This document shows, piece after piece, positions 12,352-32,628 of a stretch of 64,000 nucleotides of DNA. Every line of letters begins with the position of its first letter. The first letter of the stretch is position 1. Source of the DNA: a virus. Lineage: Duplodnaviria; Caudoviricetes. The notes under the pieces are model-generated. The model was not told where the DNA came from. It saw only the letters and a list, made by a program, of their open reading frames with translations, and searched no databases. The stretch lies in the IMG/VR virus record IMGVR_UViG_3300035208_002098, positions 128,001 through 192,000 of that record. The stretch is one strand, 5' to 3'. Both the position numbers and the translations under genes were made by a program.

Positions 12352-12962
12352 TGGGTATGACACCAGAAGAATTAAAACGTAAGCGAAAAGAACGTTATGA
12401 CGCTAACGCTGAAGAATTAAGACGTAAAAGACGTGAATATTACTATAATAACAAAGAGAAATCAGCTGAATATAGTAAACAGTACCACGAAGTTAATCGT
12501 GATAAAAATCTAGAAGTTAAGAAAAAATATCGTGAAGCTAATAAAGAAAAAATAGCTGAAAGTAAAAAGATATGGGACACTAATAATCGTGATAGGATTA
12601 ATGAATACGTTACAAATAGGAAAAAATACGATAAATTATTTAAACTATCTGAAAACTATAGATGTGCTATAAATAAAGCTATTAATAGATTTGGTTACAC
12701 CAAAAAATCTAAAACCACTGAAATACTTGGTTGTACATTTGAGGAATTTAAAGCTTATATCGAATCTAAATTTGAATCATGGATGAATTGGTCCAACCAC
12801 GGATTGTATAATGGTGATTTTAATTATGGTTGGGATATTGACCATATAATACCACTTGCAACTGCAAAGACCGAAGATGATATAATAATGTTGAATCACT
12901 ATACCAATCTTCAGCCTTTATGTAGTCATATTAATAGAGATATTAAGAAAGATAATCTATAA
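12351..12962 (+). mobile_element. HNH homing endonuclease
   Basis: WDIDHIIPL...NHYTNLQPLC..IN; basic N-terminal repeats. Confidence 0.85.
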
Positions 12963-14088
12963 CTCGTTTATATAATTGTTTGTTATTGTATGTAACCATA
13001 TACTCTTTAATAGAATTATGTTTACCGTCATATAACCCAAAAAATAAACCGGTAAAATCACTAAACCCATTTTGTTTTGATATAGATAATACTATATTAG
13101 CTATTACTTTACGTTCAACAATAGTAGTAGATTGTGGTATATAATTAACTATATCTACCCAAGTATTTTCTAAATCATTAATGAAAACATCGTATTTACC
13201 TTTCAGTTCTAGCATTTCATCTTTTCTCTCAGGTACATAAACAAGGTATTCCTCAATTTCATTGGTTTTAATAACTTGCATTATTTCATATTGAGAAGAT
13301 TTAGATTTTAAATGATGTAAAGCGACATATGATGGAGTCTTCATTTTAACTCTATTAAAATTATCATCAACAATAACATAACCTTCAAAAAATGGGTCTG
13401 GCATATTCTCAAATGTTCTTCTAATAGCACCAATATCCATTGCATTTATATCAAATTGTTTAACCACTGGTACACGTAACGCCCAAATAATTTCATGTAA
13501 GTCATCGTATGACAACTCTTCTAAAGTTTCAAGGTTCCTAACACCTAATAATGTAAGTGAAGAAGTTTCATGTGGTTTAACAACTATATTATATGGGGTA
13601 GTTAACTCAAACGCATATGTAAAACCTTTTGTTAATACAGCTTCATGAAAATTAGGTACCATATTTTTAAGTGTAGTCCAAAATAATTTAGCGAATGTTG
13701 TACCAAATTTATTGTTTACTTCGCCATCAGCTTCTGGTGTACCTGTTGTACCAACTAACCATTGATTTTTATGCCAATCCCAATATAATTGAATTAAACT
13801 ACCATCAACTTTTTCTAAAATCTTCGCTGTATTCCAGTCTATTTTAGCTGCATGACCTTCTTCATGATTGAAGAATTTACGGAATGCCAATGACATAACT
13901 TTCCAAGTATCTCTTTCAAGGATAAGACCTCTACAGTCTTGAGTTTCTTCAAAAGCCATTGGTGATTCTAGTTGATTATATTTCAACAGAATCTTATTTT
14001 CACATACATTAGTTTTAAGCTTAAAAGTTTCAATTGCTTTCGCTAAACCATGTAATTTTATATATTTTACTATTGCTAATTCTTTCAT
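12943..14088 (-). CDS. RNA ligase 1 (T4 Rnl1-like)
   Basis: CRGLIL, FRKFFN, EKVDGS, EGYVI, RVKMK. Confidence 0.85.
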   Translation of the reverse strand: MKELAIVKYIKLHGLAKAIETFKLKTNVCENKILLKYNQLESPMAFEETQDCRGLILERDTWKVMSLAFRKFFNHEEGHAAKIDWNTAKILEKVDGSLIQLYWDWHKNQWLVGTTGTPEADGEVNNKFGTTFAKLFWTTLKNMVPNFHEAVLTKGFTYAFELTTPYNIVVKPHETSSLTLLGVRNLETLEELSYDDLHEIIWALRVPVVKQFDINAMDIGAIRRTFENMPDPFFEGYVIVDDNFNRVKMKTPSYVALHHLKSKSSQYEIMQVIKTNEIEEYLVYVPERKDEMLELKGKYDVFINDLENTWVDIVNYIPQSTTIVERKVIANIVLSISKQNGFSDFTGLFFGLYDGKHNSIKEYMVTYNNKQLYKRVIDYLS

Positions 14089-17147: not shown

Positions 17148-17184
17148 TGACCCATGAGGAATTCGAATCCCCAACCTCTTGGTT
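17148..17184 (-). pseudogene. 3' half of a disrupted canonical tRNA (probably Arg)
   Basis: AACCAAG-AGGTT-GGGGA TTCGAAT TCCTC-ATGGGTC-A; acceptor strand pairs with the 5' half at 18014-18043. Confidence 0.75.
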
Positions 17185-17191
17185 ATTATTG

Positions 17192-17271
17192 AACGAGTGG
17201 AGGGATTCGAACCCACATTTACAACTCCGTTTACGTTTATATAGTTCGTAGCTATACTCGGTTACACTCGC
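17192..17271 (-). tRNA. D-arm-less tRNA-like RNA, anticodon ACG (Arg)
   Basis: GCGAGTG/CACTCGT acceptor, TATAG-CTACGAA-CTATA arm, TTCGAAT T-loop; overlaps the HNH stop. Confidence 0.7.
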
Positions 17272-17917
17272 TTATGATATTATATCTTTTAACCCATTTT
17301 CTGACCGTATTATCACTAACACCATATTTTCTACCTATTGCACAATACGACATATTTTTAATCATATCATTAAGTTCTAATTCTGTTGGCCATTCAACTT
17401 TCCTAAGGTCTAATCTAATTTTATTTACTGTTCTACCATCTATTTTTTTTACTTTATTTTCCGGTAAACCTTTACTTCCAAGACAATGTGTTGGTAAAGT
17501 TGAATTACAATTTGGGCATAAAAACCTTAAATTTTCTAATCTGTTATCATTATTAACACCATTAATGTGGTCTAATATTAAAGTTATTTTTTCACCTAAC
17601 CATTCACCTTTATTACCACATTTAACACATTTATACTCTAATAAATTATCATTAATAATTCTTTTTTTTATACAAGCCCGACTTATAATCGAATCCTTAG
17701 TAAAAAGCACATCATTTTCATACTTTGTTCGAACTCCAATATTTTCACGTTTTATTGTAAAATGACTAACATCTATCTCATATCGAACCAATAATTTCTT
17801 TAATATTTTATACGAACCACCAGACTCATTCCTATTTAGTTTTACCAACACTTCTCTATAACTATTACAACCAGCAACTATTATAACCAGCTCACTCTTT
17901 TCATATCTTTTATACAT
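17252..17917 (-). mobile_element. HNH homing endonuclease inside a tRNA gene
   Basis: CVKC, LDHINGVNNDNRLENLRFLCPNCN, C-terminal HTH. Confidence 0.9.
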
Positions 17918-18013
17918 ATATCGAACCTTTATATATAAATATATCGAATAATATGAAAGTTCGAATTATTTTAAATATTATTAGGTATTCAAAATCATAA
18001 AAATATAATATTT

Positions 18014-18043
18014 AGTGCTCTAATCCGATTGAGCTAATGAGCC
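18014..18043 (-). pseudogene. 5' half of the disrupted tRNA
   Basis: GGCTCAT-TA-GCTC AATCGGATTA GAGC-A-CT, then breaks off. Confidence 0.75.
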
Positions 18044-18059
18044 AAATATATAACGTTTG

Positions 18060-18143
18060 CGGAAGAAGTAGAGTCCGAGTCCAATGCCTTACGGCACACA
18101 TTGTTTAGCAAACAAGTCCACCAGCCCCAGTGGTTCATCTTCC
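18060..18143 (-). tRNA. tRNA-Ser(GCT), atypical 8/4 fold
   Basis: TTGCTAA loop, long V-arm, 8-position acceptor (one U-U), 4-bp T stem, T-loop CTCGGAC. Confidence 0.7.
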
Positions 18144-18165
18144 ATTTAATAAGTATTTGTTTATG

Positions 18166-18237
18166 TGACCTCACTGGAATTCGAATCCAGATTTAAAGTT
18201 TAGGAAACTCCCGTTCTATCCATTAAACTATGTGGCC
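18166..18237 (-). tRNA. tRNA-Arg(CCT)
   Basis: Canonical cloverleaf, TTCCTAA loop. Confidence 0.85.
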
Positions 18238-18238
18238 A

Positions 18239-18481
18239 TTAAGGATTAATTTGTTGTTGAATATCTTTAATATGTGTTACAATATTTTGAACATTAACAT
18301 GTTTAACTGCTTTAGTTAAAAAATCTATTGTGGTCTCATCATTTTGATACATATCAATAGCACCTAGAATATTATTTAATTCGTTACGTAATCGTTCAAT
18401 TGGTGTTTCATTTTCTTCATATTCACCATTTGAAAATTCCATTAAATTTTCTCTAATTTTAATTTTAGTATCTCGTTTCAT
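18239..18481 (-). CDS. Hypothetical protein
   Basis: 80-aa ORF behind TATTTA motif; KIKIRE N-terminus. Confidence 0.55.
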   Translation of the reverse strand: MKRDTKIKIRENLMEFSNGEYEENETPIERLRNELNNILGAIDMYQNDETTIDFLTKAVKHVNVQNIVTHIKDIQQQINP

Positions 18482-18511
18482 TGTATTAATATTATATACA
18501 ATAAATATCTA

Positions 18512-19114
18512 TCAATTCTTATAGTTCTTAACATACCTATCTTTTCTAGCAGAATTTTTATTCTTAGATTTATATGTTCCTAATTGCGAATCACAATTAG
18601 GGCATACACACCTTAAATTACTTCTAGTATTATTACTAGCATCACCATCAATATGGTCTAATATAAATACTATAGGTTTATTATTCCAAATATCTAACAT
18701 CCTACATATATCACATAAATTATTTTGTTCTTTTAAAATATGTGGTTTTATAGCTTTAGTATCATATAATATACCACGATATTGCTCTTGATTAATTAAA
18801 TAATTTTCATACGTTGAATTCATCTTATATTCACTAGAACATCTTATACTACAAAATTTTTGTTTATCATAACTAGTTGTAATACATTTACCACAATTTA
18901 AACAAATAATTTTTTTTATTGTACCAGTATTATATGGTTTAAAACCTTCAGGAAAAGTCTTCCTTGTAATCAATTGTATACCTAAACGTTTACATACTTT
19001 TTTTATGTAAGTATCACTAACACCATATATCTCACCTATTTTAGTATAGGGTAATTTTTCTTCAAAAATTAATTTTTCTAAATCACCCTTTTTGTATTTA
19101 TCTTCAAAATTCAT
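18512..19114 (-). mobile_element. HNH homing endonuclease
   Basis: LDHIDGDASNNTRSNLRCVCPNCD; N-terminal HTH and zinc ribbon. Confidence 0.9.
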
Positions 19115-19196
19115 AATATGTTTTATTATAAATATCTAGATAAATAATAAACGAACCAAAAGTAAATATTTTTTTAAGTTTACTTTTGGTTCGTTG

Positions 19197-19282
19197 TGAA
19201 CGAGGGGGGAGTCGAACCCACAAGTACTTTACAGTAAACGATTTAGAAGACCGTGACGCTTCCAATTACGTGCTACTCGTCC
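19197..19282 (-). tRNA. tRNA-Arg(TCT) with long variable arm
   Basis: ACGGT-CTTCTAA-ATCGT arm, 16-nt V region. Confidence 0.8.
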
Positions 19283-19303
19283 ATTACACCATGAAGGCAT
19301 TTT

Positions 19304-19447
19304 TTAATGTTTATATAATTTGAATATAGTTTCTTCTATTTCATCACGAATATCTTCATCCGTTAATTTAATATCCTTCATCTCATCTTCTATCATAATA
19401 TCCTCATTAATAATAGTCATTTCTATTTTATCATCTATGTTTTTCAT
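19304..19447 (-). CDS. Small acidic protein, 47 aa; not in ORF track
   Basis: MKNIDDKIEMTIINEDIMIEDEMKDIKLTDEDIRDEIEET; promoter at 19474. Confidence 0.5.
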   Translation of the reverse strand: MKNIDDKIEMTIINEDIMIEDEMKDIKLTDEDIRDEIEETIFKLYKH

Positions 19448-19532
19448 ATGTTTATCCTTTTACTATAATTATCACAAATATACTAAATAGTTAAGATAAA
19501 TTCAATATTTTCTTAACCAATTTATTAAAAAG

Positions 19533-19612
19533 AGGTCTAGGTGGGGGTCGAACCCACATTTACAATATCCATTACCCGTAACAGTTTCGAAGACTGAGGG
19601 GATTACAAGACC
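19533..19612 (-). tRNA. D-arm-less tRNA-like RNA, anticodon TCG (Arg)
   Basis: GGTCTTG/CTAGACC, CAGT-CTTCGAA-ACTG, GTGGG-TTCGACC-CCCAC. Confidence 0.7.
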
Positions 19613-19613
19613 A

Positions 19614-20015
19614 TTACCCTATTGGTGCAACATATCTAGGGTTTTCGTTTCTTAATATAGCTATTAACTTTCTAATTTCTTTAGGTTGTTCACTATACCA
19701 ATTATTGGCTTCAATAACTAAATCATTATATTCTTCCTCACTATAACAGAATATTTTACCATCAATTTCGATATCAGTACTAGCGAGTGATAATTCCGGA
19801 TAGTCAATAATAGGTTCTAAAACAATACCAGCAACGTTAACCCAAAAATTATAATCCTCATCAGATAATTCAATTCTACCGTTACTAAATAAACTATCAA
19901 TCATAATTTTAGCATCAAATATAGTACAATTAAAATATTTTTTAGCTTCACTTATAGCATTATGTCTACCAAATTTAAATATACCGTTATACGATATTAC
20001 ATAATATTTTTTCAT
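19614..20015 (-). CDS. Hypothetical protein
   Basis: Likely start MKKYY; promoter at 20037. Confidence 0.55.
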   Translation of the reverse strand: MKKYYVISYNGIFKFGRHNAISEAKKYFNCTIFDAKIMIDSLFSNGRIELSDEDYNFWVNVAGIVLEPIIDYPELSLASTDIEIDGKIFCYSEEEYNDLVIEANNWYSEQPKEIRKLIAILRNENPRYVAPIG

Positions 20016-20083
20016 AATTAAATTGTTATTAGAATACAAAGATAATACAATTAATTTAATTTACCAAATATTTTATTTTTTAG

Positions 20084-20168
20084 TACACCCGGAGGGATTC
20101 GAACCCCCAAGAACATAAAGTCACCTCTTTAGAAGAGAGGGACGCTTCCAATTACGTGCTACGGATGC
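20084..20168 (-). tRNA. tRNA-Arg(TCT) with long variable arm
   Basis: CCTCT-CTTCTAA-AGAGG; D region identical to 19197-19282. Confidence 0.8.
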
Positions 20169-20177
20169 ATTTTTAAG

Positions 20178-20264
20178 AGGGAAGGGTGGGAGTCGAACCC
20201 ACGATGGAACTTACGTTCACCAGATTAACAGTCTGGACTTTTCGACCACTAAAGCAACCGACCC
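20178..20264 (-). tRNA. tRNA-Asn(GTT) on a type II (Tyr-like) body
   Basis: CCAGA-CTGTTAA-TCTGG, V-arm GAAC-GTAA-GTTC. Confidence 0.7.
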
Positions 20265-20351
20265 ATGGCGTGATTATTTGAACTAGCGTTCTGGAACTAC
20301 TAAACCTCGTCATACTCTAATCACAATAACCAATAAGTATGCAGAACCTCG

Positions 20352-20432
20352 TATTGATGGTGGGATTCGAACCCACGTTTTCAATTTACCACTACGAATA
20401 TCCAAGATATAAGCTTGGCTCGGTACATCAAT
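20352..20432 (-). tRNA. D-arm-less tRNA-like RNA, anticodon TAT (Ile)
   Basis: ATTGATG/CATCAAT-A, CCAAG-CTTATAT-CTTGG, perfect T arm. Confidence 0.7.
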
Positions 20433-20442
20433 ATATTTAAAG

Positions 20443-20515
20443 TGGGCCTACACAGACTTGAACTGTGAATCTTCTCCTTATGAGGGAGGTGCCTTCACCA
20501 TTTGGCTATAGGCCC
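20443..20515 (-). tRNA. tRNA(CAT), probably Ile2 (lysidine)
   Basis: GGGCCTA acceptor, A73, CTCATAA loop. Confidence 0.75.
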
Positions 20516-20521
20516 AAACTT

Positions 20522-20818
20522 TTATACAATTTTAATAAATTCACCATTATCAATTGCTTTACCAATCCACCTATTTAAGAAAGATGCTTTAATTTGATTT
20601 TCAAAAGATGTTGTACCTAAATCAGCTGATAATTTAATGAATGGTAATTCAACTTCAGGTTTACCAATTACTTTAACAGTCTCAATAGTTTCGATTGGAA
20701 ATTGAAAAATACCTTCTTCTATTTCTACTGTATAATATAAATTACCAGAACAATAATGTGAAAATTTAGCACTTACTTTAGATTTTAATAATTGTTTTTG
20801 AACATTTAATTTTTCCAT
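20522..20818 (-). CDS. Hypothetical protein
   Basis: True start MEKLNV at 20818; the longer call overlaps tRNA-Ile. Confidence 0.65.
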   Translation of the reverse strand: MEKLNVQKQLLKSKVSAKFSHYCSGNLYYTVEIEEGIFQFPIETIETVKVIGKPEVELPFIKLSADLGTTSFENQIKASFLNRWIGKAIDNGEFIKIV

Positions 20819-20844
20819 TTTAATAATTGTTTTTAATTTATTTG

Positions 20845-20918
20845 TCCGCTTGATAGGACTTGAACCTATAACCTCTTCCGTATCAGGGAAGTAATCTAAC
20901 CAATTGATATACAAGCGG
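20845..20918 (-). tRNA. tRNA-Ile(GAT)
   Basis: Canonical cloverleaf. Confidence 0.85.
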
Positions 20919-20933
20919 ATTTATTATTTCTTA

Positions 20934-21010
20934 GGTACCTAAATTGGACTCGAACCAAAAACTAACTAGTATAAGGCTCCACAAGCCTCAGTGCCATCCC
21001 GGCTAGGTAC
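20934..21010 (-). tRNA. Atypical tRNA-His(GTG), reduced D arm, extended V region
   Basis: GAGGC-TTGTGGA-GCCTT, TTCGAGT T-loop, G-1:C73 possible. Confidence 0.6.
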
Positions 21011-21015
21011 ATTTG

Positions 21016-21100
21016 TCGTCTGGGTGAGATTTGAACTCACGTTGAGAATTAATCTCACAGCTTATCAGGCTGTTTTCTGCCACCACTCGAATACCAGACA
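21016..21100 (-). tRNA. tRNA-Ile(GAT) with long variable arm
   Basis: ACAGC-CTGATAA-GCTGT, V-arm GAGA-TTAAT-TCTC. Confidence 0.75.
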
Positions 21101-21803: not shown

Positions 21804-21855
21804 ATTTATATCGTTTATTATATAAATATAAGGTAAAGTACAAAAATGTCAAGTG

Positions 21856-21927
21856 GGTGTAAGCACGGTATCGAACCGAGTTCTCGTGATTCACAGTCAC
21901 GCACATCACCTTAATGCTTCAAACACC
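21856..21927 (-). tRNA. tRNA-His(GTG)
   Basis: G-1/C73, CTGTGAA loop. Confidence 0.85.
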
Positions 21928-21936
21928 ATATATTTG

Positions 21937-22018
21937 AGGAAGATAGAAGAATCGAACTCCATACCTACAGGTATCCCTAGGGTTCAAGCCTAGTTTGCCA
22001 CCGATGGCGGTACCTTCC
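21937..22018 (-). tRNA. tRNA-Ser(TGA), 8/4 allo-tRNA-like fold
   Basis: GGAAGGTA/TATCTTCC 8 bp, GGAG/CTTC 4 bp, D arm GCCA-TCGG-TGGC. Confidence 0.7.
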
Positions 22019-22027
22019 ATAAATTTG

Positions 22028-22112
22028 CGGAGGTAGTAGGGCTCGAACCCACACGGGTGTTACCCCGACCACGGTTTTCAAGACCGGTACAATACCATTC
22101 TGTCACACCTCC
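22028..22112 (-). tRNA. tRNA-Ser(TGA)
   Basis: Canonical type II, G73. Confidence 0.9.
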
Positions 22113-22116
22113 ATTG

Positions 22117-22187
22117 CACAGGTAGAAAGGGTCGAACTCTCACGGAAGGTTTTGGAGACCTTAATGCTACCATTACATTATACCTGT
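22117..22187 (-). tRNA. tRNA-Trp(CCA)
   Basis: Canonical, CTCCAAA loop. Confidence 0.85.
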
Positions 22188-22195
22188 ATATTTTG

Positions 22196-22284
22196 CACAT
22201 CGGTAGGGATTCGAACCCTCATCTAATCTTACGACCCTTAAGGACTGGGTTGGAGCCAGCTAGTCACGCCTAATGAGCCGATGT
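22196..22284 (-). tRNA. Atypical tRNA-Trp(CCA) with enlarged variable region
   Basis: ACATCGG/CCGATGT-G, CTGG-CTCCAAC-CCAG. Confidence 0.65.
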
Positions 22285-22292
22285 GTATTTAC

Positions 22293-22310
22293 CAATATGT
22301 CAAAGAACTT
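22293..22310 (-). promoter_or_regulatory. boxA-like antitermination element
   Basis: AAGTTCTTTGACATATTG; variants at about 33120-33130 and 34878-34886 before the other RNA operons. Confidence 0.55.
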
Positions 22311-22315
22311 TGTTG

Positions 22316-22387
22316 CGGACAAGGAGAATTTCGAAATCCCGACCCTCTGGTTAACGGCCAGACGCTCTGCCTCTGAGCTACGTGTCC
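22316..22387 (-). tRNA. tRNA-Asn(GTT)
   Basis: Canonical, TCTGG-CCGTTAA-CCAGA, G73. Confidence 0.85.
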
Positions 22388-22401: not shown

Positions 22402-22437
22402 AAAAAAGCCTGAAACGTTTTTACGAATCAGGCTTTT
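22402..22437 (-). terminator. Attenuator terminator upstream of the tRNA array
   Basis: AAAAGCCTGA...TCAGGCTTTTTT. Confidence 0.8.
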
Positions 22438-22469
22438 AAGCTTTTAATATTTTTAATATCTTATCTTGT

Positions 22470-22562
22470 TTACAAGAAATTAAACATACCTGATTCGGAA
22501 TGGATAGAACGTCTAATGTTCGACCAATTACTATGAATACTATGTATATTATTATTTCTCAT
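22470..22562 (-). CDS. Leader peptide MRNNNIHSIHSNWSNIRRSIHSESGMFNFL (30 aa)
   Basis: ATG 22562 to TAA 22470; contains antiterminator strand CGAATCAGGT (22497-22488). Confidence 0.8.
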   Translation of the reverse strand: MRNNNIHSIHSNWSNIRRSIHSESGMFNFL

Positions 22563-22600
22563 TTTTTCTATTTGTTTATTGTTTAATTCTATTGTTTGTT

Positions 22601-22644
22601 TATAAATATACTGCAAAGATATGAAAAGTTTCAATACAAGTCAA
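22601..22644 (-). promoter_or_regulatory. Promoter(s) of the leader/tRNA operon
   Basis: TTGA (22644-22641), TATCTTTG (22621-22614) and TATTTATA (22608-22601). Confidence 0.7.
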
Positions 22645-22700: not shown

Positions 22701-23228
22701 TTATTTTAAAAATTTAGCTGGTACGTGGTCAGTTAACCAGACACCGTTAGTTGATTGATAGAAAATAAACCCTTCGTTATACATTTCACCGGCTAATACT
22801 TCAAATATAATTGGTTTACCATGTCTACTACCGACATTTGTGGCCGTTTCAATATCATTACTTAAATGAACATAGTCTCTTTTTAATTTTAGTAATCCAT
22901 TTTCATTAATCGATTTAACACTATCAATACTAGTACCATGATATAATATATTAGGTGGTGTTTTACTTTCATATTGTAGGTCAATACCTAATGAATGGCC
23001 TTGACTAGCTCTGATTTTTGATTTATCATTATTAAACTCAAATCTTTTTTTATTATTAGTTCTAACAATAAACTCAAGTTCTTCAATGTCTATTTTTCTA
23101 CCATTTTTATTCATTTGTAATAGTAATTGGGTAACTTCTACCCAACCACTATTATCTAATTTTAAACCTATTGTTTCTGGTTTATGTCTTAATATAAGAC
23201 TTAAAAACCTACTATTATCGTTACTCAT
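22701..23228 (-). CDS. kptA: RNA 2'-phosphotransferase Tpt1/KptA
   Basis: SLILRH, KKRF, IRASQGHS, LYHGT, VHLS, NGVWL. Confidence 0.95.
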   Translation of the reverse strand: MSNDNSRFLSLILRHKPETIGLKLDNSGWVEVTQLLLQMNKNGRKIDIEELEFIVRTNNKKRFEFNNDKSKIRASQGHSLGIDLQYESKTPPNILYHGTSIDSVKSINENGLLKLKRDYVHLSNDIETATNVGSRHGKPIIFEVLAGEMYNEGFIFYQSTNGVWLTDHVPAKFLK

Positions 23229-24351
23229 TTAACATTTTATTAAAGTTTTCTAATTCAAGTTCATGTATTTTTTTACCCATTTCAGGTCCGGGTTTAATAC
23301 CTAATTTTTCTATATCTTCACCGGTAACTGTAAATTTAAAATCTAAGAATTTATCAATTAATTCGATGTCCATATTGTTTAATTCAGCGAATCTAATAAC
23401 TTCATCATTAGAAATTTTAGATAAAATTTGTGATTTTTTCGCATTATAAACTAAATTTGGTTCAAAATATAAGAATGACATTAAGAAGTATATTTTACCT
23501 ATTTCATCACTAGTATATTTTAACTCAGCTAACACTTTTTTTACGAGTGCTGGTGAATTACCTTCAAATATTATGGCCATTAAAACAATTGGACTTTTAA
23601 CTTCAATTAAATTAAAATGTCTAATGTTTAAACCGGGAAAAATAAGTTTAAACATATCATAAACAAATAAACTATTTAAAAATTGTCTAACTGATTTTGC
23701 TGTTTTAACACCTTTAATAAATTCATCTCGAATTCTTTCTGGTGACACACCAATTAAGTTATTATCTTTAGTTATAGCACCAGCTGTTTTGGAGTTCATA
23801 TTAAAACCAAATCTAGCTGAAAATCTAATAGCTCTTAATTTTCTAAGTTTATCTTCATTAAATCTATCAATTGGTTCACCAACAGTTCTAATTTCGCTAA
23901 AACGTAAATCGTAAATACCATCAACTAAGTCAACTATTTGACTTTTTTCTATATCATAGAATAAAGCATTGATTGTTAAATCTCTTCTAAGTACATCCTT
24001 TTCTATAGTTGAGAATATAACTTCATCAGGTCTTCTTGAGTCGGTATAATCACCATCTTCTCTGAATGTCGCAATTTCATATTCGTCATTACCAGTAATA
24101 ACATTAATAACACCAAATGCTTTACCGGTTTCCAAGATATTAGTAACAAATGGTTGACCTTTAAGAATTTCAATTATTTTATCTGGTATTGCATTTGTAG
24201 CTAAATCCCAATCTTTTGGTTTTAACCCTAAATATGCATCACGAACTGAACCACCGACTAGGAATAAGTCAAACCCAAATGTTTTAAAAACTTTATTGAT
24301 TTTTATAACATCTTCTGGTAAATCTATTTTAAAATCTAATCTTGTTTCCAT
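23221..24351 (-). CDS. cca: CCA-adding tRNA nucleotidyltransferase
   Basis: VGGSVRD, DWDLAT, RRDLTINAL, EDKLRKLRAIRF, SPERIRDE. Confidence 0.9.
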   Translation of the reverse strand: METRLDFKIDLPEDVIKINKVFKTFGFDLFLVGGSVRDAYLGLKPKDWDLATNAIPDKIIEILKGQPFVTNILETGKAFGVINVITGNDEYEIATFREDGDYTDSRRPDEVIFSTIEKDVLRRDLTINALFYDIEKSQIVDLVDGIYDLRFSEIRTVGEPIDRFNEDKLRKLRAIRFSARFGFNMNSKTAGAITKDNNLIGVSPERIRDEFIKGVKTAKSVRQFLNSLFVYDMFKLIFPGLNIRHFNLIEVKSPIVLMAIIFEGNSPALVKKVLAELKYTSDEIGKIYFLMSFLYFEPNLVYNAKKSQILSKISNDEVIRFAELNNMDIELIDKFLDFKFTVTGEDIEKLGIKPGPEMGKKIHELELENFNKMLNE

Positions 24352-24408
24352 TTTATTGTTCTTTTTAATTAGGATACAAAGATAACACAATAAAATGAGA
24401 AAAACAAA

Positions 24409-26555: not shown

Positions 26556-27138
26556 CTCTTACCTCAATAATTGATGGGTTATATATTATAATATGTTTAC
26601 AATTTTTAAAACCTTCAAATCTTTCAAAATCCTTCTTATCCACCAAAACACCATCAATACCTAACGTTACCATATCTCTAATATATGATATACCGTTTGA
26701 ATACCCGTAAAAATCAACCCAAACTTGTAGAAAGACATCTTTTTCATTATCATTATATTCAATAAATGATTTAATCGCCATATCTAAACCAATGTTAGGG
26801 TTCATATGCCAATTTTGTGCAGTTAATTCCCACCCATCTATCATCTTAATAAGTTTTTTTAATACAGATGATATATTATATGTTAATTTATTGATTGGAG
26901 CTTCAGTTAGTAATTTTCTTGGGGATAATTTTAAGGTATATATATTATTACCATATTGTCTGGCATCATTATATATATTTGTTGTGTAGATGCCCGGACC
27001 TTCAGCATCATTAGATTTTTCACCACTAACAAATTCATCACTAAATTTAGCAATTTTTGTTGGTGAACCATGATAAACCAAAAAACCTTGATTTTCAATA
27101 TATTCTTTTAAATATTTTCTTAGTAAACCATTAATCAT
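26515..27138 (-). CDS. ADP-ribosyltransferase-like (YHGS...GPGIY) cargo protein
   Basis: VYHGS, EGPGIYTT, ARQYG; MINGLLRKYLKE leader. Confidence 0.6.
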   Translation of the reverse strand: MINGLLRKYLKEYIENQGFLVYHGSPTKIAKFSDEFVSGEKSNDAEGPGIYTTNIYNDARQYGNNIYTLKLSPRKLLTEAPINKLTYNISSVLKKLIKMIDGWELTAQNWHMNPNIGLDMAIKSFIEYNDNEKDVFLQVWVDFYGYSNGISYIRDMVTLGIDGVLVDKKDFERFEGFKNCKHIIIYNPSIIEVRDVEFNTEENDKKF

Positions 27139-27175
27139 TATAAATAACTATTTACTATAAATATATTTAAAAATC

Positions 27176-27204
27176 AAAAAAAAAGCCCTAAAATTTAGGG
27201 CTTT
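27176..27204 (-). terminator. Intrinsic terminator
   Basis: AAAGCCCTAAA/TTTAGGGCTTT plus T-tract. Confidence 0.7.
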
Positions 27205-27208
27205 ATAT

Positions 27209-27715
27209 TTATTTTAATATAATTTTACCAATTCGCTTAACTTTTTCTTCTAAGTCAGATAATGTACCATTATTATCTATTATAATATCAGCACATGATA
27301 TATCTATATTAAACGAATCCGGACTTTCTGGTGGTAATCTTTTTGAAGAATCAACCCATATTATCAAATCAAATAAATTTTGTTTAATACATTCATTAAT
27401 TTCATCACGGTCTCGCATACCAACATAACAATCAGAATTTTCAAGAATACTTTTAGCTAATCTAGCTCTATCGTATTTATTATATTCACAAATCATATTA
27501 TACCATTCAGCTCTATGATTCATTCTATCTTCAAAACATTCTTCAGGTGTTTTATAGCCATATTTACCTTTAAGTTCATCATAAATAAAAATATTTGATG
27601 CTTCTAATGATGATGATTTAAATTTTAAACTGTAATGTTTTTCTAGTAACTCAGCAAACGTGTCTTTTCCCCATCTCTTATGGGAAATAATTAATAATTT
27701 AGGTGATTTTTTCAT
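27209..27715 (-). CDS. Deoxynucleoside-monophosphate-kinase-like P-loop protein
   Basis: HKRWGKDT, GMRDRDE, DIIIDNNGT. Confidence 0.7.
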   Translation of the reverse strand: MKKSPKLLIISHKRWGKDTFAELLEKHYSLKFKSSSLEASNIFIYDELKGKYGYKTPEECFEDRMNHRAEWYNMICEYNKYDRARLAKSILENSDCYVGMRDRDEINECIKQNLFDLIIWVDSSKRLPPESPDSFNIDISCADIIIDNNGTLSDLEEKVKRIGKIILK

Positions 27716-31387: not shown

Positions 31388-31470
31388 TCCGGCTAGTAGG
31401 ATTCGAACCTACGGGTTCCTAAGAACGTGGGATATGAGCCCAGTGCGATTGTCCACTCTGCCATAGCCGG
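31388..31470 (-). tRNA. tRNA(CAT) with long variable arm
   Basis: TGGG-CTCATAT-CCCA, V-arm GTTC-TTAG-GAAC. Confidence 0.75.
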
Positions 31471-31477
31471 TGATATT

Positions 31478-32156
31478 TTAGTGTAATAATTGAATATTAC
31501 CTCTTAGTATATCTTTTAATTTAGCTCTTTTATTAGTAATATGGTCGATAACTAAATCATCTTTAACTCTATATGTTCTTCTTTTGTCAGAACGAGCACC
31601 ATTACCAATTTGTTGTTTTCTAAATTCTATTTCTTCGTCATTTATCTTATTAAAATAAATATCTCTAATTCTTTTTTCTATTTCTTCCCAAGCTAATTCT
31701 TCATTTCTATGTCTTTCTCGATTATTACCAATTCTAACCATGATACCTGTAGGTATATGAGTTAATACAACACAAGTTTCAACCTTATTTCTATGTTGAC
31801 CACCTTTACCACTACTACGAGTGTATTTGCGATTAACCTCATCACGGTTTAATTTAAAATTATATTCTTCTTCTGGAATTAAAGCAACGGTTATACAACT
31901 AGTTTGAATCCTACCCCTCTTTTCAGTTGGTGGTATTCTTTGCCATCTATGTGACCCGATTTCTTCTTGGAAATACTTTTCTACATCTTTACCGCTAAAG
32001 GCAAAGCATGACAAATCCACTTCTTTCTTCAACTGTTGAACAATCAAAGTTATTAATACTGGCTGCTTTTGTGTAGATATTTTTCATTTCACCTACAAGC
32101 AGTTTTGCATCGGCACCGCCTTCAGCATCTCTAAGTTCTAAAAATAGTTTTTTCAT
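31478..32156 (-). CDS. Class I peptide-chain release factor (RF1-type, lacking domain 1), 225 aa via +1 frameshift
   Basis: ELRDAEGG in frame 0; CTT TAG C at 32000-31994; HRWQRIPPTE and SSGKGGQH in the +1 frame. Confidence 0.85.
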
Positions 32157-32190
32157 TTGGTGAAATTTTAATTAATTATTAATACAGTTA

Positions 32191-32277
32191 TTATTGTCTA
32201 GAATTTATTATCAATATTGTAAATGCAATAACATATGGTGCTGCAATACATATTCCCGTTATAATAGCTGGTGTCAT
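32191..32277 (-). CDS. Small hydrophobic peptide (28 aa)
   Basis: MTPAIITGICIAAPYVIAFTILIINSRQ. Confidence 0.35.
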   Translation of the reverse strand: MTPAIITGICIAAPYVIAFTILIINSRQ

Positions 32278-32294
32278 ATTTTTATTTTAAAAAA

Positions 32295-32347
32295 CAGGAA
32301 GAACTTTTTTTTCTTAACCATAGAATTTAATTGCTGAACTCTTCCTT
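32295..32347 (-). ncRNA. Y-RNA-like motif RNA, copy 1
   Basis: GGAAGAG-TTCAGCAA...TTCTTCC-TG. Confidence 0.5.
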
Positions 32348-32354
32348 TATTTTG

Positions 32355-32405
32355 TGGAAGTGATTGGTATTGCTCCAATATTACGTACTCTCTACGTACA
32401 CTTCC
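32355..32405 (-). ncRNA. Mini tRNA-like RNA (acceptor, single hairpin, T-like arm)
   Basis: GGAAGTG/CACTTCC-A; TACGTA-GAGAG-TACGTA; ATTGG-AGCAATA-CCAAT. Confidence 0.55.
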
Positions 32406-32410
32406 ATTTG

Positions 32411-32494
32411 TTGCGGAGACAGGATTCGAACCTATACTAGCATTAACTGTCTCTTGGTTATGAGCCAAGAATGTTACCCTTACACCACCCCACG
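32411..32494 (-). tRNA. Initiator-like tRNA-Met(CAT) with long variable region
   Basis: C1.A72 mismatch, CTTGG-CTCATAA-CCAAG. Confidence 0.75.
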
Positions 32495-32554
32495 ATATAT
32501 TTTATAAGCTCCCCAAAGTGTGCTTCCAAAGGATAGGCATGGGGAGGATTGTTG

Positions 32555-32628
32555 TAGCGAAGAGTGGACTCGAACCACTGACCTTTAGGTTATGAGCCTA
32601 ACGAGCTACCAACTGCTACCACCTCGCA
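32555..32628 (-). tRNA. tRNA-fMet(CAT)
   Basis: 1:72 mismatch, fMet-like D arm GTAGCAGTTGGTAGCTCG. Confidence 0.85.

Follow-up and report, generated by a model that had tools for sequence, protein, structure and literature searches.

A probable multivalent ribosome-sensing attenuator of phage tRNA genes and its two paralogues

The phage tRNA operon analyzed here is very likely controlled by a multivalent, ribosome-sensing transcription attenuator of the ilvGMEDA/thr type, one of three that, judging from sequence and folding models, would divide the 19 non-Met amino acids among them. The operon lies in a stretch of 64,000 nt (the window), which sits in a 248,412-nt virus record (27.7% GC, ~70% complete). 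The initial annotation had proposed trp/his-type attenuation logic. Paralogous cassettes B and C elsewhere in the genome, co-variation of leaders with arrays and compensatory helix changes support this proposal. The layout is that of a classical attenuator, with a short ORF between promoter and operon, a leader rich in cognate codons and a terminator before the first gene. The system is real and very probably functional. It works like a classical multivalent attenuator yet falls outside the described leader families and controls tRNA genes.

Leader, terminator and tRNA array of cassette A

The features of cassette A and its surroundings are, in window coordinates:

23221..24390, minus strand: CCA-adding enzyme-like nucleotidyltransferase, upstream context
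22701..23228, minus strand: Tpt1/KptA RNA 2'-phosphotransferase, directly upstream (PF01885, E 4e-48)
22614..22644, minus strand: host-type promoter (-33/-7), 55-57 of 58 nt identical to the cassette B and C promoters
22602..22609, minus strand: 8-nt AT-rich motif, also found 5' of leaders B and C
22470..22562, minus strand: leader ORF of 30 codons; an open frame of 30-33 codons is kept in 12 homologous loci
22497..22559, minus strand: sensing zone, codons 2-22, all Arg/Asn/Ile/His/Ser/Trp
22541..22550, minus strand: segment 1, a near-invariant block and possible protector, with complementarity to the bases that directly follow segment 2
22488..22497, minus strand: segment 2, 5' strand of the antiterminator, codons 22-25, with compensatory changes
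22424..22433, minus strand: segment 3, 5' arm of the terminator, common to antiterminator and terminator
22402..22437, minus strand: intrinsic terminator hairpin and U tract (stem 22437-22404, U tract 22407-22402)
21855..22387, minus strand: proximal tRNA block with Asn, Trp (long V arm), Trp, Ser, Ser and His
22299..22308, minus strand: boxA-like word, presumably with a boxA/Nus role, 3' of the first tRNA and near array starts in most relatives
17148..21100, minus strand: distal tRNAs, with GIY-YIG-like genes, HNH genes and internal promoter-like sites between them
12943..14088, minus strand: T4 Rnl1-type RNA ligase, downstream of the array (PF09511, E 5e-19)

The leader ORF annotated at 22562-22470 was recovered at these coordinates on the minus strand. 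Codons 2-22, described as encoding only R, N, I, H, S and W, do so at 21/21 positions, and for Ser, Arg and Ile the sensing zone includes both codon families. These six amino acids make up 30% of the residues of the phage proteome, for which the full match has a binomial P of 1e-11. Among 2,732 ATG-started windows of the whole genome, the leader alone reached 21/21. Base shuffling never reached this value (0/100,000; maximum 16). The idea that leaders maximize the number of distinct codons was unsupported (33 vs 30 expected, P 0.16). The leaders contain more rare codons than expected (12 vs 4.4, P 0.0008), and RNA structure could be an alternative cause of this enrichment.

The reported 10-nt complementarity between 22497-22488 and 22433-22424 consists of nine Watson-Crick pairs and one G-U pair. 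The antiterminator duplex of cassette A has an energy of -16.6 kcal/mol, equalled by none of 2,000 codon shuffles. The terminator stem reaches -17.6 kcal/mol (z -6.6), and the terminator does end 15 nt before tRNA-Asn as claimed. Antiterminator and terminator are mutually exclusive, as segment 3 can pair with segment 2 or with the terminator 3' arm. Segment 1 lies in codons 5-8, and the 1:2 helix that it may form as a protector or pause hairpin is weak and outcompeted by the 2:3 helix at equilibrium.

All 11 aligned loci preserve six core pairs of the 2:3 helix. Five of these loci carry the helix version of the window, four of the five being required to by the search pattern. Two-sided changes occur at three positions of the helix (two A-U to G-C, one U-A to A-U) and derive from loci retrieved via an endonuclease gene. 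The terminator 3' arm mostly changes along at these positions. The 11 loci belong to few related groups, and the compensatory changes therefore count as few events. In homologue L042, segment 2 lies in another reading frame, which argues that the RNA rather than the peptide is conserved at this position. The antiterminator of another locus, L094, is within chance by the duplex test, yet it formed in masked folds.

The array at 22387-17148 contains only Asn, Trp, Ser, His, Ile, CAU and Arg anticodons and thus matches the leader as the initial annotation had stated. The first part of the distal tRNAs comprises two Ile-GAU, an atypical His, the Ile2-like CAU, an atypical UAU and an Asn tRNA. The rest consists of two Arg-UCU, atypical Arg-UCG and Arg-ACG, Arg-CCU and Ser-GCU. 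Atypical genes that ARAGORN did not call (His, Ile-UAU, Arg-UCG, Arg-ACG and Ser-GCU) also fall within the leader's set. It is reasonable to read the CAU tRNA as Ile2 because it carries C4-G69 and C5-G68, which we take to be Ile2/TilS-type determinants, and because an Ile-UAU tRNA occupies the same place in relative L102. A search of the genome for synthetases of the GluRS/GlnRS family found none.

A genome-wide promoter scan located many -33/-7 promoters across the record. We take these to be of the Bacteroidota sigma70-like type, and the phage host is therefore probably a Bacteroidota bacterium. The 8-nt AT-rich motif stands 20-30 nt before phage genes in 35 of 91 minus-strand copies (~6 expected), a placement that suggests a probable phage-specific promoter. 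Further copies of this motif are found at 21829, 19135, 18508 and 17942. Neither the host-type pattern nor the 8-nt motif occurs within the proximal block (21855..22387). Promoter-like sites inside the array are located at 21829, 20067, 19505, 19135, 18508 and 17942. They could allow the distal Ile and Arg tRNAs to be made independently of the switch.

Paralogous cassettes and related phages

The promoter scan also recovered two further copies of the cassette A promoter, both outside the window. These mark cassettes B and C, with the following leaders:

genome 117770-117663 (L097:5164-5271, minus strand): leader B, before a Cys/Val/Leu/Asp/Phe/Ala array, 17/23 codons matching
genome 102201-102115 (L098:7616-7702, minus strand): leader C, before a Pro/Gln/Tyr/Glu/Lys/Gly/Thr array, 17/17 matching

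In all three cassettes, every amino acid of the array is present in its own leader. The three leader sets are disjoint and jointly cover 19 amino acids, all except Met; the Met cluster (31388-32628) is without a comparable leader. Across the three leaders, 55/61 codons match their own arrays, a level reached by 0/1,000,000 random partitions. Each leader is also the top ATG-started window genome-wide for its own amino-acid set, and the next-best matches of a model built from cassette A are C and B. Each leader forms its best duplex with its own terminator arm (-16.6, -12.5 and -16.5 kcal/mol for A, B and C, respectively), and leader C also pairs with arm A (-14.3 kcal/mol). A tRNA of array C called as Trp by ARAGORN re-parses as Lys-UUU and was counted as Lys. 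A fourth RNA cluster (L099, genome 108500-110995) has a promoter and a boxA-like word and no leader; alongside a single normal Phe tRNA, it contains several tRNA-like elements. Amber (CUA) tRNAs are located near the arrays of L102, L104, L105, L107, L109 and L110, and at 93270-93343 of this genome.

The co-variation of leader and array proposed as a check on related phages was borne out, as arrays of the same set had matching leaders and regrouped arrays came with regrouped leaders. All 12 homologues of cassette A retain the leader, the amino-acid set and the terminator; L001 was retrieved via the neighboring Tpt1 protein and several others via a helix-only pattern. Same-set arrays retrieved via an endonuclease gene inside the array (L102-L105, L107, L112) had matching leaders in 6/6 cases. 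A pattern blind to both sensing codons and tRNAs produced 54 metagenome and genome matches. Six of these were followed by tRNAs, all with this type of leader. In the regrouped arrays of L108, His now sits with Pro/Gln and Trp with Asp/Glu/Val/Leu/Ala, and the respective leaders contain His and Trp. L109 has two cassettes (Lys/Val/Ile/His and Tyr/Ala/Pro/Ser/Trp/Cys) with leaders following, L094 has a Ser/Phe/Tyr/Leu cassette with a leader match of 13/13, and L106 has a single array of 18 amino acids with a mixed leader. Eight leaders matched with their true arrays scored 85/104, the best of 40,320 permutations (fixed window, codons 6-18), with leaders chosen from short ORFs before the terminator in protein-fetched loci and a statistic that ignores kinship. 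L110 and L111 had no multi-tRNA array within range.

Beyond these relatives, exact-pattern scans of viral contigs with the promoter and with cassettes B and C yielded no match or chance matches without tRNAs. The cassette A pattern had 20 matches in bacterial genomes, none followed by tRNAs. The cassette A model gave weak matches only (best E 8e-4) on 151 genomes from the phylum of a Chitinophaga metagenome-assembled genome. The 10 loci examined among these matches were without tRNAs, with few candidates scored per genome. The genomes searched showed no sign of a host copy of the cassette, and the search found no cultured phage with a similar leader. In L001, a structured RNA with a tRNA-like 3' end lies between the Tpt1 gene and the attenuator (L001:7880-8350) and is possibly a tmRNA. 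L031 (5308-6800) and L041 have near-identical arrays, in which one atypical tRNA reads UCA (opal) in L031 and UCG in L041.

Ribosome position, proposed mechanism and alternatives

To model the effect of ribosome position, we folded RNA ending at the terminator loop and masked 15 nt behind and 12 nt ahead of the A-site start as the assumed ribosome footprint. The model treats a kinetic process as if it were at equilibrium. The antiterminator was intact with the A site at codons 2-18, weakened at codons ~19-29, and intact again at the stop codon. Segment 2 is thus free while a ribosome is stalled on the sensing codons and covered during passage. The claim that a ribosome completing the leader masks the antiterminator stands for the crossing of codons ~19-29 and fails at the stop codon, where masking is lost. 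The stop codon lies 15 nt past segment 2 in cassette A and 15-24 nt across cassettes. With a ribosome at the stop codon, the terminator arm stays sequestered in A, B and C (P about 1.0, 0.7 and 1.0), whereas ilvL and thrL release it in the same model (0.3 and 0.0). The trp-type geometry, where a ribosome at the stop codon favors the terminator, was not found in the phage cassettes. Shut-off must therefore rest on ribosome transit or on the weak 1:2 helix.

We suggest the following mechanism. The leader would be translated by ribosomes. With an ample supply of all six kinds of aminoacyl-tRNA, ribosomes would cross codons ~19-29 and cover or unwind segment 2, the local terminator would form, and transcription would end 15 nt before the first tRNA. 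Scarcity, cleavage or lack of charging of even a single cognate tRNA would make the ribosome dwell on codons 2-18. Segment 2 could then bind the terminator arm and polymerase would enter the array. The leader would act as an OR gate over its six amino acids. The output tRNAs would decode the same codons and remove the signal, creating a negative feedback on tRNA supply. Such a switch would answer any slow decoding of the sensed codons and could not distinguish cut from uncharged tRNA.

The likeliest purpose is the replacement of tRNAs lost during infection, through defense nucleases or general decay, because extra tRNA would presumably not cure amino-acid starvation. We infer this purpose from the output being tRNAs, from the adjoining Tpt1, CCA enzyme and RNA ligase genes, and from published rescue by phage tRNAs. 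A broader reading, which we consider about an even bet, is a code-wide surveillance by jumbo phages. A few leaders, between them spelling the genetic code, would sense when anti-phage nucleases damage a host tRNA of any kind and would turn on the matching block alone, with leaders and arrays co-evolving upon reshuffling. The replacement blocks would then include long-variable-arm or other odd-shaped tRNAs.

The strongest alternative contests the stated purpose only. The switch might be a general homeostat of tRNA supply that follows charging, host tRNA decay late in infection or starvation of a slowly growing host and has no special link to anti-phage nucleases. We give this a substantial chance, somewhat below even. 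The leaders span 19 amino acids rather than the few known nuclease targets, the mechanism is blind to the state of the missing tRNA, and host tRNA is generally depleted in infection according to work cited in PMC10264068. Pointing back to nuclease damage are the repair enzymes next to the array, the rescue by phage tRNAs from PARIS and retrons (PMC11464382, PMC11555353) and our reasoning that added tRNA is no remedy for a lack of amino acids.

A second alternative concerns the mechanism. The antiterminator could be the default state, such that any block of translation, be it failed initiation or damaged ribosomes, opens the array and the codon match only tunes the response. In the ribosome-free decision intermediate of A and C, the antiterminator does prevail (P 0.99), and the weakness of the 1:2 helix also fits this view. 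However, the same calculation returned 0.71 for ilvL and 0.56 for thrL and thus discriminates poorly. L094 has a strong protector, and the strict partition of codons points to codon-specific sensing. We regard such a translation-off detector as unlikely.

More doubtful still is a set of real hairpins flipped by a protein, either of the boxA/Nus type or a phage antiterminator, with a vestigial or modulating leader. The conserved boxA-like word near array starts and the failure of a stop-codon ribosome to mask segment 2 are consistent with such a protein, and there is a precedent in Streptomyces ilvB, where an attenuator-like leader failed codon-swap tests (PMC1262725). However, the boxA-like word lies downstream of the terminator, and the leaders track the reshuffling of arrays between phages, which a vestigial ORF would not. 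A coincidental match between a short AT-rich ORF and an ordinary terminator is hardly conceivable and was ruled out by the shuffles, the use of other amino-acid sets in B and C, the co-variation and the compensatory changes, even though Asn and Ile codons are favored in AT-rich DNA.

Known systems and further elements near the arrays

The attenuator-based reading places the phage leaders closest to E. coli ilvL (Ile/Leu/Val) and thrL (Thr/Ile) in layout. Shared are a multivalent sensing zone of ~20 codons, a non-sensing tail and an intrinsic terminator 23-36 nt past the stop. In ilvL, segment 2 lies inside the ORF tail at codons 22-25 as it does here (nt 66-73 in ilvL, 66-75 here), and it ends 23 nt before the stop compared to 15 nt in cassette A. 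Unlike ilvL and thrL, the phage leaders precede tRNA genes rather than biosynthetic enzymes, sense six or seven amino acids each, tile the code with three paralogues, are phage-borne and, in the model, keep the terminator arm sequestered with a ribosome at the stop codon. T-box riboswitches likewise sense tRNA status and act via antitermination. They bind uncharged tRNA directly, read one codon each and are translation-independent, and loss of tRNA would not induce them. The T-box covariance model had no match at the cassette. No Rfam family matched at its gathering score, the best leader family being Phe_leader with 18 bits vs 55. The operons of described leader families (trp, his, leu, phe, thr and ilv) carry biosynthetic or synthetase genes; here, the operon carries tRNA genes. 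The Anabaena trn operon is a cryptic tRNA array induced by translational stress, with TrcR as repressor. The array is on when translation is impaired, as proposed here, but control is by a protein repressor, is not codon-specific and involves no leader peptide.

Leader-peptide control of a translation component by charged tRNA is also found in pheST and in the predicted trpS and leuS attenuators (PMC1262725). These are chromosomal, sense one amino acid and have synthetases as output, whereas the phage cassettes have tRNAs. Replacement of lost host tRNAs by phage tRNA arrays is known from T5 against PARIS (PMC11464382), from T5-like phages against retrons and PrrC (PMC11555353) and from PMC10264068. 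All three papers ascribe array expression to strong promoters, and the words leader and attenuation are absent. The initial annotation knew of no description of such a switch for a phage tRNA array. Our search of the open literature, with most subscription journals outside its reach, likewise found no leader-peptide control of tRNA genes.

The role of phage tRNA arrays has been argued for 50 years, between codon bias and the replacement of destroyed tRNAs. If the switch is inducible and codon-specific, tRNAs would be made on demand upon decoding failure, and the question of purpose becomes testable with a 250-nt reporter. Attenuation, so far tied to the supply of amino acids, would then also provide feedback on tRNA supply, and where one to three amino acids were sensed before, the code would be partitioned. 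As sensors, the leaders could moreover report which tRNA a defense nuclease or toxin attacks.

Several tRNAs and neighboring elements are unusual. The first tRNA-Asn (22315-22387) has C, not U, at position 33 of the anticodon loop. Many anticodons are doubled, with one normal tRNA and one twin with a long variable arm. Such twins exist for Trp, Ile, Asn, Arg and Met in the window (22195-22284, 21015-21100, 20177-20264, 20083-20168, 19196-19282, 31388-31470 and 32410-32494) and for Lys, Glu, Gln, Thr, Val and Cys elsewhere, including arrays B and C. Several twins have the three-nucleotide spacer of Tyr-type bodies, and the Arg twins retain A20. The twins could be nuclease-evading or mis-charging tRNAs. 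Three tRNA-like genes (20348-20432, 17188-17277 and 19532-19622) lack a normal D arm, although they have the acceptor, anticodon and T arms, and contain an extra region of ~24 nt. Their anticodons are UAU (Ile), ACG and UCG (both Arg), and the UAU gene is kept in L030 and L031. At 17148-18043, a tRNA gene is apparently split into a 5' half (~18043-18012) and a 3' half (~17185-17148) by an insertion with an HNH gene and the atypical Arg-ACG gene, a possible homing cassette that replaces its own target. The window further contains a phage tmRNA (34504-34870) and a minus-strand gene from ~41904 with an N-terminus resembling TROVE/Ro60 as judged by eye. Outside the window, on the minus strand of genome C1 (~27100-27600), a promoter with the boxA-like word is followed by ~30-nt repeats with varying spacers, resembling a CRISPR array.
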